From IMG/VR virus record IMGVR_UViG_2724679073_000002: 23,679 bases of DNA; one strand, 5' to 3'. Position numbers and translations under genes: made by a program. This document shows, in pieces, positions 474 through 23,679 of the stretch; within the stretch, counting starts at the first letter, position 1; each line of letters starts with the position of its first letter. The stretch is from a virus. Its lineage: Duplodnaviria > Heunggongvirae > Uroviricota > Caudoviricetes. The notes under the pieces were generated by a model, which was not told the origin of the DNA, did not search any database, and saw nothing but the letters and a program-made list of their open reading frames with translations.

Positions 474-3400
474 TCAGCTAATCGTGATGCCTGCAGTGGC
501 TTTCTTCATCACCACAACCAGCAAATCGCTGATACTTGCTGTGGGATACCAGTTATTTACCAGCCATGCTGACACCGAAAACTCCAGTGTCATGTGACCG
601 TGACCGGCAGGCATATCAATAACACCACTGTAAATCAGCGTATTATCCAGCGCGGTACGGTTATAAATTTCAGCACCGTTTTTCCGCACTATCAGACGGC
701 ATGAGGAGTAAATATCAGTATGCTCTTTCTCATGTTTAGCGCCGCTGAATGCCACCGCCGGAATAACAATCTGCCGGTCAAACGGCTGATCGTCATAAAC
801 CCTGACGGTAATGGTTCCTGATGGCCACCGCTCCGGTGCACGGGAGTCCCGGGGGAAAGCTTTGCCCACTGTTTTAACGAGATCGCCTTCAATCTGGTTC
901 GCGGACAATTTTCCCAGAACCCGACAGTTCTCGTTAATCGTGACGTTGTTGAGCGTCCCGGAGTTCGCATTCACGTTACCGCTGATATCGGCATTTTTCG
1001 CCGTCAGCCGCCCGTCCGGTGTCAGGGAAAATGCCGGAGGATTACCGCCGCTGGTAATGGTGGGAGCCGTCAGATATTTCAGGAACACTTCATTCATAAA
1101 TATCTGATCGCCCTGACCAACAAACATCGGCTTTGTGTTGCCATTCGCAGGATTAATCATCGCAATCCTGTCTGCCGCCAGCAGCACCTGACTCTGCATT
1201 CCTGCTGGCGTATTCTCAATACCGGCACCGATACCCGCAATATAAAGGCGTCCGTCCTGCATCTGCTGCAGTTTCACGGCCCACATGCTGTTCAGGTTAT
1301 TATTTGTATCAACCTGAACTTTCTGTATCTGCTGGATTGCCGCACTCTGATTTTCCAGTTTTTTATTGACGGTCTGCGTGATTTCATTGCTGACATTCGT
1401 AATGGACGTCCTGATTTCAGCCAGGTCCGGCGCAAGCTGACCGTTATCAATCTGCGTCCACAGCTCCTGGGCCAGATGTGTTTTCCCGATTTCTCCTTTG
1501 AAAAAATCCAGGTAACCTTCCGCATCATCGCTCGCCCGACCGACAGCCTCCACGAATGCCGATTTGCCAACAGTATTCACACTGCGGATATAAAAATAAT
1601 AATCATGGCCCGGTTTGATATTGATACTGGCAGCTATCCAGTACAGCGCCGAGCCAAGATAGCGGGCTGCGGTTTCAACCTGCCTGATATCCGCAATCCG
1701 CTTTTCCGAGAACCAGAACTCAAACTGTACCGTCGGGTCATAAACGGCAAGATGTGGCGTTGCGGTTATCTGAAAATAGCCCGGCGTCAGCTCAATCCGC
1801 GACGGTGCTGCCGGTGCGGCAATCCGGAAGGTGGTGGTGGCAGGTTCACCCTGCTGGCCATAGCTGTTTATCGCCCGCACCGTCAGGGTGTATTCCCCGA
1901 GCGGCAGGCCGCTGAAACGGTGCTCCGTGTCTGCGGTGATGGCGGTGGTCACCAGTCTGGCATCCGTTCCCTTACCACTGGTCAGGCGCAGACTGAAGCG
2001 CACACCCTTCACCACCCGCGGCGTGTCCCATTTCGCCTGCGCCAGATACTGGCCGTCAGCTGCGCTCACCTCCACCGTCAGGTGCTGCACTGCCGGTGGG
2101 ATGACGCTGTTCAGGGAACCTGACTGCGGCTCAAAGCGGGCACCGTTATCCACGATGGCTTCTTTTTCCGGTACGTGCTGCACCGCCGTGATGGCAAAGG
2201 TGCCGTCCGTGTTTTCCCGGATGGAGACACAGCGGAACAGGCGACGGCGCAGTGACGGCAGGGAGAGTCCCCACACCCCGTATGTCTCCACACCATCAGG
2301 CAGGGTACTGACCTGTATCCGGTCCGGCGCGGGGTGTGCGGTGATGTCCACACTCACCGGCTTACCGCTGCCGTTAATCAGGTTCACCGCCGATGTACCT
2401 GTCTCCGGCAGGGTAACCTCACGGTCCAGCGTCAGGGTGCGGGTGGCAGCATCAATGGACAGGACACGTCCGCCGGTCAGGGTCCCGGCATAGTCATTAT
2501 CACAGATTTCAATAATGTCACCGGGTGTGTGCCGCAGCCCCTGAGACCCGAGCGTGAAATCCACCGTCTGCGTTTCCAGCAGTTCGGTCTTTATCACCCA
2601 CAGTCCGGCACGGTGGGCCTGACCGCGGCTGGTACAGCCGAACGCGTCCATCTTCAGCAGGTTGCGTCCGTAGCGCAGTATGGCTTCCGGGTCTTCCACC
2701 AGTTCCGTGGAGGTCTGCCAGCCGTTCTGCGGGTCGGTGTAATTCACCTCCACCGCCGTGTGCCGGTCCTTCAGGGCACTGAAGCTGTAGCGGAATCCCA
2801 CGCCGTTATCATCCACCACCACATCGCTGTTGGTGTACGGCCACACCACATCCGACGGGCGGTCCTGAACGAACGTCAGCGTCTGACCGTTCCATACCGG
2901 CATACAGCGCATCGCAGAGCAGAAATCACTGAGAACGTCCCACGCCTTACGCTGTTGTGCCAGGTACGCATTAAAGGTCATCCGCGGCTCGGTCCCCCCG
3001 AAACCATCCGGGACCGTCTGGTCGCAGTACTGCCCGATGGCATACAGCGCCCACTTGTCCACATCCGCCGCCCCCAGACGTTTTCCCATGCCGTAGCGCG
3101 GGTGAGTCAGCATGTCCCACAGACACCAGGCCGGGTTGTTGCTGTATGCCGGTTTCAGACTGCCGTCCCAGATACCACTATACGTGCGTTTTTCCGGGTC
3201 ATAGTTTGACGGCACCTGGATGATGCGACCGCGGATATGGTAGTTCACCGTCATCTGCTGGCCGCCGAACTGCTCCGCATCCACCTGCAGCCCCACAATG
3301 GCCGTGTTCGGGTAGCACTGTTTCACATCGATGATTTCGGTGTATGACGACCACAGCGTCTTATTCTGCAGCTGGTCCGTGGTGCTGTCCGCCGTCTCCC

Positions 3401-3947
3401 TGACCATCCGGATGTTAAAGGGCCGGGGAGGCAGATTATCCAGAATCACCGAGGCCAGGAACTGTGAGGTGGTCTTGCCGTTAATGGTGACGTCCTTTTC
3501 TGTCACCCAGTTACCGTTACGCTGTAACTGAATCAGCAGGCGGACGGATGCCGGGTTACGGTCACCCTTTGAGGTGGTCTCCACCAGTGACTGCACCCCG
3601 AAGGTAACCCGCAGGCGGTCAATGTTCGCGGACGTAATGGTGCGCGTCACCGGTTTTGCCTTCGTCACTTCCACGCCCAGTCCGGTTTCAGCTCCGGAGG
3701 ACTCAAAGCCTTCCGGTGGTGTCTGCTCCTGCTCCCCGGCGCGCCAGACCGCCGTCACACCGTGTATCACGGGATTGCCGTCCGTGTCCGTCAGTGGGGT
3801 TTTGTTCACCAGAATACTCTGCAGTCCCTTCACCGGACCTTCTATCGGTCCCTCACCAATCGCATCAATCACGCTCATCATCTGCGTGGATTTGAGATTA
3901 TCCTTCGCCTCACGAGGCGTGTGTGCCTTACCGCCACCTTTTCCCAT
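474..3947 (-). CDS. J: Tail tip / host specificity protein J (central tail fibre), 1157 aa
   Basis: Full-length collinear similarity to lambda gpJ as recalled ([22 protein letters not shown]..., [116 protein letters not shown]); GGAAGG SD before the ATG. Confidence 0.95.
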
Positions 3948-20493: not shown

Positions 20494-20694
20494 ATGTCAT
20501 CGAAAAACCGGACCCGCAGAACCACAACCCGCAATATCCGTTTCCCCAATCACATAATTGAACAGATCAACATCGCCCTTGAGCATAAAGGGTCCGGTAA
20601 CTTTTCAGCGTGGGTTATTGAAGCCTGCAGGAGAAGGCTGGCAACAGATGCAACGCATCTGCGCCCGGCCAGCATGACAAATAACGAGAAATGA
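20494..20694 (+). CDS. Small ribbon-helix-helix-like DNA-binding protein, 66 aa
   Basis: ATG at 20494 with AAAGGAAA SD; MSSKNRTRRTTTRNIRFPNHIIEQINIALEHKGSGNFSAWVIEACRRRL has basic N-tail, beta-strand, then helices, an RHH-like pattern. The track ORF 20434.. carries a spurious N-terminal extension into the HNH start. Confidence 0.6.
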   Translation: MSSKNRTRRTTTRNIRFPNHIIEQINIALEHKGSGNFSAWVIEACRRRLATDATHLRPASMTNNEK

Positions 20695-21600: not shown

Positions 21601-21687
21601 TCACCACCAACGGATTGCCCAGACCAGAACAGCAATGGCCACAATACGAATGGCAAATGCCATTGCCCGAATAAGTTCAGCACTCAT
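21601..21687 (-). CDS. Candidate small hydrophobic peptide, 28 aa
   Basis: [28 protein letters not shown]; stop TGA one nt before the Rz ATG; too short for the ORF track. Confidence 0.25.
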
Positions 21688-21698
21688 CTTTTTAAAGT

Positions 21699-21821
21699 TC
21701 ACGATTTCAGCGCAATGACCAGTTTTGCCAGCCCATACAGCATCGGAGACACAGCAATACCAACAGCCACCCACTTAATAGCAAAAGCCAGCGCTCTGCT
21801 GATGTCATCAGTCACTGTCAC
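21699..21821 (-). CDS. Candidate small membrane peptide, ~40 aa, putative GTG start
   Basis: (V)TVTDDISRALAFAIKWVAVGIAVSPMLYGLAKLVIALKS; GTG overlaps the stop of the upstream 43-aa ORF (GTGA); the longer 90-aa track ORF in this frame looks non-protein-like at its 5' end. Confidence 0.25.
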   Translation of the reverse strand: MTVTDDISRALAFAIKWVAVGIAVSPMLYGLAKLVIALKS

Positions 21822-21949
21822 CCCAGCAGCCCCGACGAAGACAACATCACCCAGGCGAGGGACAGAAAAAGAGCAACCAGCATTAGTGAAAATGAAATAC
21901 CGACAATCACACACAGGACCTTTGCCGGCGTTATGAGTTTGTCTGACAT
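21818..21949 (-). CDS. Candidate small membrane peptide, 43 aa
   Basis: MSDKLITPAKVLCVIVGISFSLMLVALFLSLAWVMLSSSGLLG; ATG 2 nt after the stop of the upstream 31-aa ORF; one TM segment. Confidence 0.35.
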   Translation of the reverse strand: MSDKLITPAKVLCVIVGISFSLMLVALFLSLAWVMLSSSGLLG

Positions 21950-21951
21950 AG

Positions 21952-22047
21952 CTACCCCTTAATTGCCACAATTAACTGGGATACTACCCATAAAAAAGGG
22001 ATGCTCCAGACCAGCAAAAATTTCCAGTTTGGTAATTGACTAATCAT
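21952..22047 (-). CDS. Candidate small membrane peptide, 31 aa
   Basis: MISQLPNWKFLLVWSIPFLWVVSQLIVAIKG with AGGGAG SD 9 nt upstream; the track ORF 21952..22164 extends 5' through a terminator hairpin and is probably over-extended. Confidence 0.35.
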   Translation of the reverse strand: MISQLPNWKFLLVWSIPFLWVVSQLIVAIKG

Positions 22048-22118
22048 GAGTCGCAACTCCCTAATCAGTTTGCTAAAATCAATCAAGGCAGCCTCCCATA
22101 GCTTACTGCCATAAAAAC

Positions 22119-22151
22119 AAAACCCCGCTTGCTGCCAACAAACGGGGTTTT
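22119..22151. terminator. Bidirectional intrinsic terminator-like hairpin downstream of the endolysin gene
   Basis: AAAACCCCG (22119..22127) / CGGGGTTTT (22143..22151), 15-nt loop; T-rich flank on both strands. Confidence 0.5.
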
Positions 22152-22241
22152 TACTTTTATTCACTTAGGTTTTGCCAGTTCACAGGACTTCGTGTTATCC
22201 GCCCGCGTTGGCCAACCTCATTTTTCAGCAAAATATTCTGC

Positions 22242-22775
22242 TTATCTGTCGATTCCCCAGCACGCCAGCGCGCTCTCCTGGTCACGACGGAATACCTGAC
22301 CGTAACAGTTATTTGAGCGAATACGGCAGTCTCTGCCACCGTCCTTAATCCACCAGCGAATCGCTTCGCATGCTCCCCTGCGATCACCTGCATTAATTCG
22401 TCTGTAAAACGTCGACGGGAAACACTTACCGGGACCAATGTTGTACGGACAGAATGACGCGATCCCCGCTTTCTGGGGTTCGGTCAATGGCACTTTGATG
22501 TTTTTCTCCACCCATGCCAGCGCCTTATCACGCTCAATGGCGTTAACCCGGTCGCATTTTTCCTTCGACAACTTCATGCCCGGAACGACAGGTTTGCCAT
22601 CCACCAGGATGGCACCGCGGCAGATGGTCCAGATACCCGCGCCATCACGGTATGCCGTGGTGTGGTTACCTTCCTTTTCATCCAGAAACTGGTCGAGAAT
22701 GTCAGGCGCAGGCGCACCAGCGGCAATCAGCGCCAGAACGGCAGCCGACAGGCCGTATCTGATTTTTGCGTTCAT
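22242..22775 (-). CDS. R: SAR endolysin (T4-lysozyme-like), 177 aa
   Basis: Weakly hydrophobic Gly/Ala-rich N-terminus (YGLSAAVLALIAAGAPAP) typical of signal-anchor-release endolysins; catalytic E-x8-D-x5-T spacing in EGNHTTAYRDGAGIWT. Confidence 0.9.
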   Translation of the reverse strand: MNAKIRYGLSAAVLALIAAGAPAPDILDQFLDEKEGNHTTAYRDGAGIWTICRGAILVDGKPVVPGMKLSKEKCDRVNAIERDKALAWVEKNIKVPLTEPQKAGIASFCPYNIGPGKCFPSTFYRRINAGDRRGACEAIRWWIKDGGRDCRIRSNNCYGQVFRRDQESALACWGIDR

Positions 22776-22880
22776 GGATATTTATCAGGATTTATCGGTT
22801 TCTGAGCCCTGGATATGTTTATCAGTTCCAGCCTGTTGCCTCAGGCTGCTAACAGGTCAATACAATCATGAGGATTATTT

Positions 22881-23153
22881 ATGGACAATAACACCATTTC
22901 TCTACAGGAGTTGCTCGACAGCATTTCCAGGCTTCGGGAAGACGTGAATACCCTTACCGTCGCCTTCTCATATCTGGCATTCTCAATTCCAAGGGAACAG
23001 ATGCAATCAACGCTGGCATCAATCCAGTTTGAATCATGCAATCCCAAATGGTCTCAGGAACAACAAGACTCTTTCAGGCGGCTTGCTGTATTACTGGATG
23101 AAAAATATGCTGGTAAAATTACCATTTCGGCGGACTCTTCAGAGAACCCGTAA
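22881..23153 (+). CDS. Hypothetical protein, 90 aa, opposite-strand gene between holin and endolysin
   Basis: ATG at 22881 with AGGA SD 8 nt upstream; helical protein-like translation; candidate -10 TACAAT at 22861; GC hairpin plus T-run about 50 nt past its stop; overlaps the 3' end of the 114-aa minus ORF by 35 bp. Confidence 0.4.
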   Translation: MDNNTISLQELLDSISRLREDVNTLTVAFSYLAFSIPREQMQSTLASIQFESCNPKWSQEQQDSFRRLAVLLDEKYAGKITISADSSENP

Positions 23154-23463
23154 TTATTCCCGGTAGTTTTCCTCTGTAGGTTATCAACACATCCTGCGCC
23201 TCTAAAATTACGGGGCGCTTTTCCGGCGACTGCTCATCCCCTTCACATAACCCGGCAGCAACATCCAGGAAGACCTGTCTGATGCTCCTTCTGGCTGCTG
23301 CCTCATAAAACTCCAGCGCGGCACCTTCAACACGGTCCAGCGAGATGTCCAGGTCAAAAATTTCACCGTCAAAGCGTTTTTTGTCCCGTAACGCTAAAGT
23401 TACCGTAACTTTATTCTCAAAATTGCGGATCCCTTTCACAATCAGTTCATAGTTTTGAGTCAT
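23119..23463 (-). CDS. Hypothetical protein, 114 aa, between holin and endolysin
   Basis: Starts 4 nt after the holin stop; N-terminal ~65 aa looks like a folded domain (YELIVKGIRNFENKVTVTLALRDKKRFDGEIFDLDISLDRVEGAALEFYEAAARRS) and may resemble small uncharacterised proteins seen in this position in E. coli cryptic prophages (from memory). Confidence 0.55.
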   Translation of the reverse strand: MTQNYELIVKGIRNFENKVTVTLALRDKKRFDGEIFDLDISLDRVEGAALEFYEAAARRSIRQVFLDVAAGLCEGDEQSPEKRPVILEAQDVLITYRGKLPGIITGSLKSPPKW

Positions 23464-23467
23464 TGAA

Positions 23468-23674
23468 TTACTCTCCCCGTGCCGCCTTACGACGGTCCTC
23501 TCTGATTTTGAAATACAGGTTAGTCAGATATGTCAGCAGCCCAAACAGCAGACTCCCCAGCACGCCTATTGCCGCCCACTGAGACGGGGAAACCCTGTCC
23601 AGCAACTGCAGGAACCAGTAGCCCGTTCCCACCGCTGACGTGGTGTATGACACACCTGTTGTGATTTTTTCCAT
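23468..23674 (-). CDS. S: Pinholin (phage 21 S-like class II holin), 68 aa; a longer upstream start cannot be excluded because the window ends at 23679
   Basis: [68 protein letters not shown] closely matches phage 21 S as recalled; two TM segments and a charged C-terminus. Confidence 0.9.
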
Positions 23675-23679
23675 CTGGT

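Follow-up and report, generated by a model that had tools for sequence, protein, structure and literature searches.

In phage lambda, bor and lom are morons, in the definition of Hendrix, Juhala and colleagues, and lie beside or inside the late operon; for Bor, expression in the lysogen and a serum-resistance phenotype are established. In phage 21 the holin gene S and the endolysin gene R are adjacent, and the colicin and immunity genes of pore-forming colicin operons converge. We analyzed a 23,679-nucleotide stretch of viral DNA (IMG/VR record IMGVR_UViG_2724679073_000002; at its full length, the window), in whose lysis region a plus-strand open reading frame (ORF) of 90 amino acids (aa) lies tail to tail with a 114-aa gene. 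The region shares with S21/R21 of phage 21 the holin family (PF04971) and a signal-anchor-release (SAR)-like lysozyme with an E-D-T triad. Unlike in phage 21, S and R are separated here by ydfR (the 114-aa gene), the 90-aa gene and a 343-bp spacer reaching from R to the 114-aa stop.

Comparative analysis indicates that the 90-aa ORF is a genuine gene. Our best reading of this comparative evidence, to which we give somewhat better than an even chance, is that the region holds two real genes lying tail to tail, an ordinary ydfR and a moron-type accessory gene of 90 aa carried on an optional segment of low GC content. The features concerned are as follows.

22881-23153, plus strand: the 90-aa gene, PHROG 2411 or "Ybl58", identified by PHROG 2411 and by substitution ratios
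23119-23463, minus strand: the 114-aa late gene of the ydfR/DUF1327 family (PF07041, PHROG 406)
23119-23153, both strands: the 35-bp 3'-3' overlap of the 90-aa gene and ydfR, with a conserved YdfR tail on the minus strand and a variable tail on the plus strand
About 22825-23128, no strand: the optional low-GC segment of about 300 bp, from alignment with Stx2_EH2201
22829-22848, plus strand: leader stem-loop CAGCCTG-TTGCCT-CAGGCTG (dG -11.3 kcal/mol)
22861-22866, plus strand: TACAAT, a -10 candidate by sequence, absent from the consensus-scan output
22814-22819, plus strand: TATGTT, an alternative -10-like element of putative use, inside the conserved CCCTGGATATGTT motif
22870-22874, plus strand: GAGGA, the Shine-Dalgarno sequence of the 90-aa gene, 6 nt before its ATG
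22242-22775, minus strand: endolysin gene R, a SAR-type lysozyme (PF00959)
23468-23674 (window edge 23679), minus strand: holin gene, P21-type class II (pinholin; PF04971)

The region 22100-23679 matched Escherichia phage vB_EcoS-783R2 (ON470626.1, a partial genome, in reverse complement) at 100% identity. The GenBank annotation of that record already calls the same four coding sequences (CDSs; holin, 114-aa, 90-aa and R) and labels the 114-aa ORF "putative YdfR family protein" and the 90-aa ORF "hypothetical protein". All coordinates of a first-pass annotation of this DNA were correct when checked on the sequence and against these CDSs. The minus strand of the window is the late region of a lambdoid phage, with holin, ydfR, R, Rz, terminase, head and tail genes.

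The first-pass annotation had taken the plus-strand ORF for a gene with its own Shine-Dalgarno sequence, and both points are borne out. The protein matched PHROG 2411 from end to end (E = 1.1e-58, 1-90/90), and the distant members P0186, P0194 and P0196 matched the same family. The ratio of nonsynonymous to synonymous substitution rates (dN/dS) was calculated pairwise over the first 82 codons at eight loci and could be defined for 25 pairs. It lay between 0.10 and 0.38 in 23 of these, and the two outlying pairs (0.79 and 0.85) have just 4.5 synonymous differences each. Among divergent pairs, differences at third positions were about twice as frequent as those at first or second positions. Fourteen full-length homologues share 24 invariant columns, the frame is kept down to 24-58% identity in other genera and contexts, and the Shine-Dalgarno sequence is conserved in the E. 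coli-type copies. Conservation of both overlapping frames, which had been proposed as a check, was found in part: both genes are conserved overall, while within the 35-bp overlap only the YdfR tail lies in a family motif. Here the minus strand encodes the conserved YdfR tail TGSLKSPPKW. The last eight residues of the 90-aa protein are variable among homologues, absent from forms of 83-85 aa, and predicted to be disordered (predicted local distance difference test score, pLDDT, <50).

The 90-aa protein carries the UniProt name "Ybl58", and the exact protein occurs on at least 1,000 contigs. The DNA of the gene was found in 1,123 of 5,426 E. coli genomes, in identity classes of 99% or more and of 80-90%, where the PGAP label is "hypothetical protein"; a copy identical to that of the window is present in ST131 strain uk_P46212 (NZ_CP013658). 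The family, a small enterobacterial one, yielded just 19 proteins in a profile search of 1.84 billion representatives, and the only GTDB species representatives with the gene are E. ruysiae and Citrobacter meridianamericanus. The DLP12 prophage of E. coli B REL606, examined for a "ybl58" copy, has essD-rrrD without ydfR. Frameshifted database copies of the 90-aa gene also exist (P0037, P0049, P0051 and P0061; one of these clusters has eight members), which indicates decay in some prophages or sequencing errors.

The protein has an isoelectric point (pI) of 4.5 and a net charge of -5.5, with no hydrophobic or transmembrane segment. An AlphaFold2 model built from a 20-sequence alignment had a mean pLDDT of 81.8, with helices at residues 8-35, 38-51 and 59-76. 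According to these predictions the product is a soluble, acidic protein of three helices. No meaningful match was obtained for it in Pfam, NCBIfam or PADLOC. At E <= 1, PADLOC likewise gave no match for the 90-aa protein, the 114-aa protein or the 238-aa partner protein of Citrobacter described below. A PDB sequence search with the family profile returned nothing below E = 0.45, Foldseek against PDB with a first, weaker model found no match, and Foldseek against BFVD returned nothing below E = 0.75. With the anti-silencing protein Mip a stretch of 15 residues matched (E = 0.037; 13.7 bits, where the cut-off is 50), which we treated as chance.

We then compared the region with phages that lack the gene. 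Stx2 phages such as Stx2_EH2201 have the order S-ydfR-R with a 50-bp gap and no 90-aa gene. In the alignment with Stx2_EH2201 the low-GC segment is absent and both flanks are common; the shared left flank includes the motif CCCTGGATAT, and the right flank consists of the final ydfR codons. The last eight codons and the stop of the 90-aa ORF fall in this right flank, antisense to the YdfR C-terminus. The GC content of the segment and of the 90-aa gene is 0.41-0.44, compared with 0.55 for R and 0.56 for the whole window. In the phage phiSTEC1575-Stx2k (L027, OQ243220, 965-2603) two further holin genes and an M15 metallopeptidase gene stand in place of R after the block of S21 holin gene, ydfR and 90-aa gene, so that this phage carries three holin-like genes in a row. 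Because different lysis genes follow the 90-aa gene there, the left edge of the low-GC segment is a recombination junction.

The same place between ydfR and R is filled, in loci with a 176-aa ydfR, by an unrelated convergent gene of 86 aa (PHROG 2572). This gene was found in 364 E. coli genomes (for example at 2479-2739, minus strand, in locus L012, E. coli CP026836); its product is also acidic (pI 4.6), and it has a leader hairpin of the same kind as the 90-aa gene. By hhalign, no homology between the 86-aa and 90-aa proteins was detected (probability 0.2%). The site at the ydfR 3' end behaves as a slot with alternative occupants. L012, an E. coli prophage, also has a tRNA gene and the small RNA STnc100 (RF02076, 132 bits), at 238-310 and 474-663, upstream of the holin gene.

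Upstream of the 90-aa gene, the window stem-loop lies 33-52 nt before the ATG, and the phage copies lie at 33-75 nt. Six other loci, including that of the unrelated 86-aa gene, have an 8-bp stem of different sequence at the same relative place, 97.9% paired. Six of the eight pairs are changed on both sides in a compensatory manner, which none of 500 shuffles equalled, in a covariation set made of these six loci with the window's own stem arms excluded; the hairpins were picked and registered by eye, which biases towards structure, and L022 supplies many of the changes. Slid registers gave only 13-57% pairing. Four G.U pairs are possible only on the plus strand, which favors an RNA structure within a plus-strand transcript. 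RNAalifold, run on a badly trimmed leader alignment, found no structure, and the hand-registered hairpin alignment was used instead; Rfam has no matching family in this region. We conclude from the aligned leaders that the hairpin is conserved in structure across the family, the window stem-loop probably being its local version.

The first-pass annotation had also named TACAAT as a candidate promoter, and this element turns out to be weak by consensus. Its sole -35-like partner is TTGCCT (22836-22841), 19 nt upstream, in the loop of the hairpin; by our reading of the sequence, TACAAT was missed by a sigma-70 scan because this spacing exceeds the scanned range. The hexamer reads GACAAT in L011. 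The motif that contains TATGTT is common to the window, L005, L010-L012, L006 and L017 and is kept in Stx2 phages without the 90-aa gene. TATGTT may be a second promoter candidate; an mRNA started from it would begin with the hairpin, in keeping with the plus-strand G.U pairs. Downstream of the small genes, the Citrobacter homologue in L006 has a terminator-like hairpin and a U-rich run after its stop (z = -4.0), and the 86-aa gene in L012 has a 9-bp hairpin with eight consecutive U behind it (z = -2.4).

Phage relatives of the 90-aa gene always lie on the strand opposite to the late genes, at differing sites, and further relatives stand alone in chromosomes.

E. coli and E. ruysiae: between ydfR and R, opposite to the late genes
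Citrobacter (L006): upstream of a lambda-type holin, CHAP endolysin and Rz set, adjoining hicAB
L020: between Rz and terminase genes
L017-L019 and L022: between tail genes M and L
L015 and L016: stand-alone chromosomal relatives between dinI and bssS
L025: stand-alone chromosomal relative after an AIDA-type autotransporter gene
L014: stand-alone chromosomal relative that converges on a 762-aa ORF, which appears to encode a P-type metal ATPase

The 90-aa protein is unlikely to be a lysis factor because its relatives occur in tail operons and chromosomes. In the Citrobacter prophage, a hicA/hicB toxin-antitoxin pair (L006, 3587-4270) directly adjoins the tail-to-tail cassette, upstream of the holin gene.

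In all the phage contexts the small gene lies 3' to 3' with a late-strand ORF, with an overlap of 7-35 bp. These partner ORFs are of 60-238 aa; their N-terminal parts are mostly unrelated, and on visual inspection several resemble coiled coils. A YdfR-like C-terminal motif of about 30 residues (...I-x-G-x-[hydrophobic]-x4-I-T-G-S-L-x-x-P-P) is present in six of the eight partners compared; the L023 partner is without it and the L022 partner has it weakly. The partners end as follows.

Window, C-terminal end of the partner: ...LITYRGKLPGIITGSLKSPPKW
Citrobacter (L006), partner at 2739-3455: ...KIEGKIRNEKITGSLRVPMKL
L007, partner at 391-576: ...RSNRIIGSLITPPEL
L017, partner at 3261-3476: ...IFSDQIFGDLKKPPSY
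L020, partner at about 2760-2950, minus strand: ...LRYKRLTGDILIPLES
L022, partner ORF at 687-869

Assignment of the 238-aa Citrobacter partner to DUF1327 was rejected; it had no Pfam or BLASTP match to that family and has only the C-terminal motif in common. The shared C-terminal stretch suggests that the small gene and its partner move together. Each nevertheless exists without the other, as ydfR mostly occurs with no small gene beside it and the relatives in chromosomes have no partner.

The first-pass annotation had also regarded the 114-aa gene as an interruption of the cassette, which was not borne out. Its product matched PF07041 (DUF1327) with 145.2 bits against a cut-off of 25 (E = 7.3e-43, profile positions 1-91/93) and also PHROG 406, and it is 66% identical to the homologue of Stx2 phages. 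The gene begins 4 nt past the holin stop (TAA-TTCA-ATG), and its Shine-Dalgarno sequence GGGGAGAG falls within the holin 3' end. A block of the holin 3' part and ydfR was found at 12,357 places in 4,397 of the 5,426 complete E. coli genomes, annotated there as "class II holin | YdfR family protein". The gene is an ordinary member of the YdfR/DUF1327 family and holin-ydfR-endolysin is the usual P21-type layout in E. coli prophages; it is no unusual interruption, because adjacency of holin and ydfR is the norm there. In essQ-ydfR-rrrQ of the K-12 Qin prophage the gene likewise directly follows a P21-type holin gene, K-12 YdfR having 103 aa compared with 114 aa here.

The YdfR core ends in ...ITGSLK(T/S)PP, followed by alternative ends: KW, LA, EF, ESQP or an in-frame extension of 62-70 residues, which gives forms of 176 and 183 aa. 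This extension was considered as a homologue of the 90-aa protein and ruled out, with no BLASTP alignment. In the common 116-aa form, R comes directly next and there is no small gene. A literature search on DUF1327, ydfR, ybl58 and lysis-cassette morons turned up only one paper, in which two-hybrid and pull-down assays show K-12 YdfR to bind the N-terminal, catalytic half of RNase E, and in which RNA co-purifies with it (PMC13232886, 2026).

How might the two genes work? We propose that ydfR would be co-expressed with the pinholin in the late operon, and that the 90-aa gene would be transcribed against the late operon, as lambda bor is, from a weak promoter of its own. The mRNA would bear a 5' leader with the conserved stem-loop. 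The protein would be made in the lysogen and would act in the cytoplasm by binding another protein, outside the holin-endolysin-spanin machinery. A cytoplasmic protein-binding factor made from the prophage is our best guess for its nature. That the gene is a moron, as the first-pass annotation had suggested, fits its occurrence as an optional insert, its low GC, its opposite strand and its chromosomal relatives; as to independent expression, the promoter named there is weak by consensus and the window has no convincing terminator. A good Shine-Dalgarno sequence, the leader stem-loop with its plus-strand G.U pairs, and the terminator-like hairpins seen in L006 and L012 speak in favor of expression signals of its own. 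Collinear phages differ in whether they have the gene, as expected of a moron: it is missing from Stx2_EH2201 and where ydfR has the 116-aa form. The GC values given above also set it apart from the neighboring genes. Constant co-occurrence of both genes, as expected of a toxin-antitoxin or effector-immunity pair, was not found.

Several results weigh against the view that the gene is a moron. A sigma-70 consensus scan with a 16-18 nt spacer found no promoter for it. The window sequence after its stop folds no better than shuffled sequence (z = -0.44), with no convincing intrinsic terminator. It occurs in only 3 of 50,697 phage records. Frameshifted copies exist, so the gene is dispensable in some prophages, and the literature search gave no expression data for it. 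The small genes in phages abut ORFs with the YdfR motif, and the two could be a functional pair rather than the small gene being independent. The last point leads to the main rival, that the 90-aa protein is a dedicated partner, antagonist- or immunity-like, of a YdfR-type effector and that the convergent pair is one mobile functional cassette. The effector would be made from the late strand in lytic growth and held in check by a constitutive small acidic protein. We treat this explanation as tentative and rather unlikely. It accounts for the retention of the pairing in very divergent copies and at several sites (S/R, upstream of S, Rz/terminase and tail M/L), for the motif common to six of eight partner sequences, and for the pairing of the extended YdfR forms (62-70 aa) with a different small acidic gene. 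The layout also recalls the colicin operons with their convergent immunity gene. It does not fit well with the holin-ydfR places counted (12,357, compared with 1,309 + 420 that have either small gene), with chromosomal relatives that have no such partner, or with the lack of a PADLOC model for either protein, and overproduction of K-12 YdfR changed only a few transcripts (PMC13232886). A fuller form of the idea is doubtful: the ydfR-type gene and the small acidic gene would make up a mobile two-gene effector/antagonist cassette that occupies several late-operon sites, with the junction ITGSLKxPP, C-termini matched to PHROG 2411 or 2572, and structured 5' leaders. A link of such a cassette to RNase E is conceivable, with a possible role in phage exclusion or in control of late expression.

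The other explanations are less probable. Plus-strand transcription might act at the level of RNA, running antisense into ydfR and the holin gene and so damping leaky late expression or tuning the lysis mRNA, with the protein secondary. The 35-bp 3' overlap and the conserved leader hairpin agree with this, a transcript without a clear terminator after the stop could reach ydfR and S, and the binding of K-12 YdfR to the RNase E catalytic half, together with its co-purified RNA, is loosely suggestive (PMC13232886). We judge it improbable all the same, since purifying selection on the protein frame and its retention at 24-40% identity show that the protein matters, terminator-like hairpins directly follow the stop in the Citrobacter homologue and the 86-aa slot gene, and copies that stand alone in chromosomes leave nothing for such transcription to counter. 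A regulator of lysis timing, such as an antiholin or a SAR-endolysin factor, has a comparably slim chance or one a shade slimmer. The position between holin and endolysin in E. coli would suit it, as would the S21-ydfR-90aa block that stays intact in phiSTEC1575-Stx2k despite the replaced endolysin; the strand is opposite to that of the late operon, the protein is soluble and acidic and has no membrane segment, unlike known antiholins, relatives lie in tail operons and chromosomes, and collinear phages lyse without the gene. Finally, the ORF could be a chance frame antisense to a non-coding spacer, for which one may cite the lack of a Pfam family and the frameshifted database variants. This we consider extremely improbable, as it is contradicted by the substitution pattern (dN/dS well below 1 in most pairs and an excess of third-position changes), by retention of the frame at low identity in other genera and contexts, and by the confident AlphaFold2 model. 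A moron-type gene beside an ordinary ydfR is still the best reading.

The remaining parts of the lysis region agree with the P21-type pinholin/SAR-endolysin cassette recognized in the first-pass annotation. The holin matched PF04971 (P21 holin S; E = 7.8e-33). Its 68-aa form starts at 23674, and the annotated 71-aa start lies 4 nt past the window end. The N-terminus of the full holin CDS (ON470626 298-513, L004) is MYQMEKITT.... In pinholins a dual-start motif gives an antiholin that carries one additional positive charge; MYQMEK has the two Met codons of this motif and, as a difference from phage 21, no Lys or Arg between them. R matched PF00959 (E = 9e-24). Read from the translation, its N-terminus has a Gly/Ala-rich, weakly hydrophobic SAR-like segment, GLSAAVLALIAAGAPAP, and its triad is E35-x8-D44-x5-T50 (E-8-D-5-T). 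With a lysozyme domain, this segment and the triad, R has the features expected of a SAR endolysin, as judged from its translation.

Two neighboring regions were also noted. The spacer between R and Rz (21684-22241, 558 bp) has a lower GC content (0.455), a strong terminator-like hairpin at 22119-22151 (AAAACCCCG...CGGGGTTTT, 15 pairs), about 90 nt past the R stop, and two tiny hydrophobic ORFs (21818-21949, 43 aa, and 21699-21815) labeled "hypothetical" in GenBank. It may be a second accessory slot within the lysis cassette. Another reverse-oriented small gene (20494-20694, plus strand; DUF3950 in GenBank) lies between Rz and the HNH endonuclease/terminase genes.

If the 90-aa gene is a moron, about 1 in 5 sequenced E. 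coli strains carry this prophage gene for a small cytoplasmic protein, and the protein would be a further candidate for a prophage-to-host effect, in regulation, exclusion or the stress response. Under the same condition, the 3' end of ydfR would count as a variable site not described before in the lysis regions of lambdoid phages. The YdfR-like pairing and the RNase E report give a concrete lead on DUF1327, which has been without a function for decades. Current views are not overturned, as lambdoid phages commonly carry morons and small orphan genes, and both genes were already annotated and are widespread. What is new is the tail-to-tail pairing with YdfR-like ORFs and the covarying leader; these two, together with the alternative slot occupants, give the locus its value for follow-up.

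Compared with known systems, the locus resembles colicin operons and polymorphic toxin-immunity systems in layout: a late or induced effector-like gene, a convergent small gene that has expression signals of its own, and then lysis genes. The conserved junction motif, with alternative C-termini matched to alternative small acidic proteins, recalls polymorphic toxin-immunity systems in particular. The likeness is one of layout only; unlike in toxin-immunity pairs, most ydfR genes have no small gene, and the PDB and fold searches found no sequence or fold similarity of the 90-aa protein to any immunity protein. We know of no toxicity of YdfR. The comparison with lambda bor is closer. Like the 90-aa gene, bor is a small accessory gene near the lysis genes that runs against the late operon, is optional and has an atypical composition. 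The products differ, Bor being a lipoprotein (PF06291) with a signal sequence, whereas the 90-aa protein is acidic, helical, predicted to be cytoplasmic and without a family assignment. The two genes also meet in position: the relative in L020 occupies the bor site between Rz and the terminase genes, where bor itself is seen in L028.

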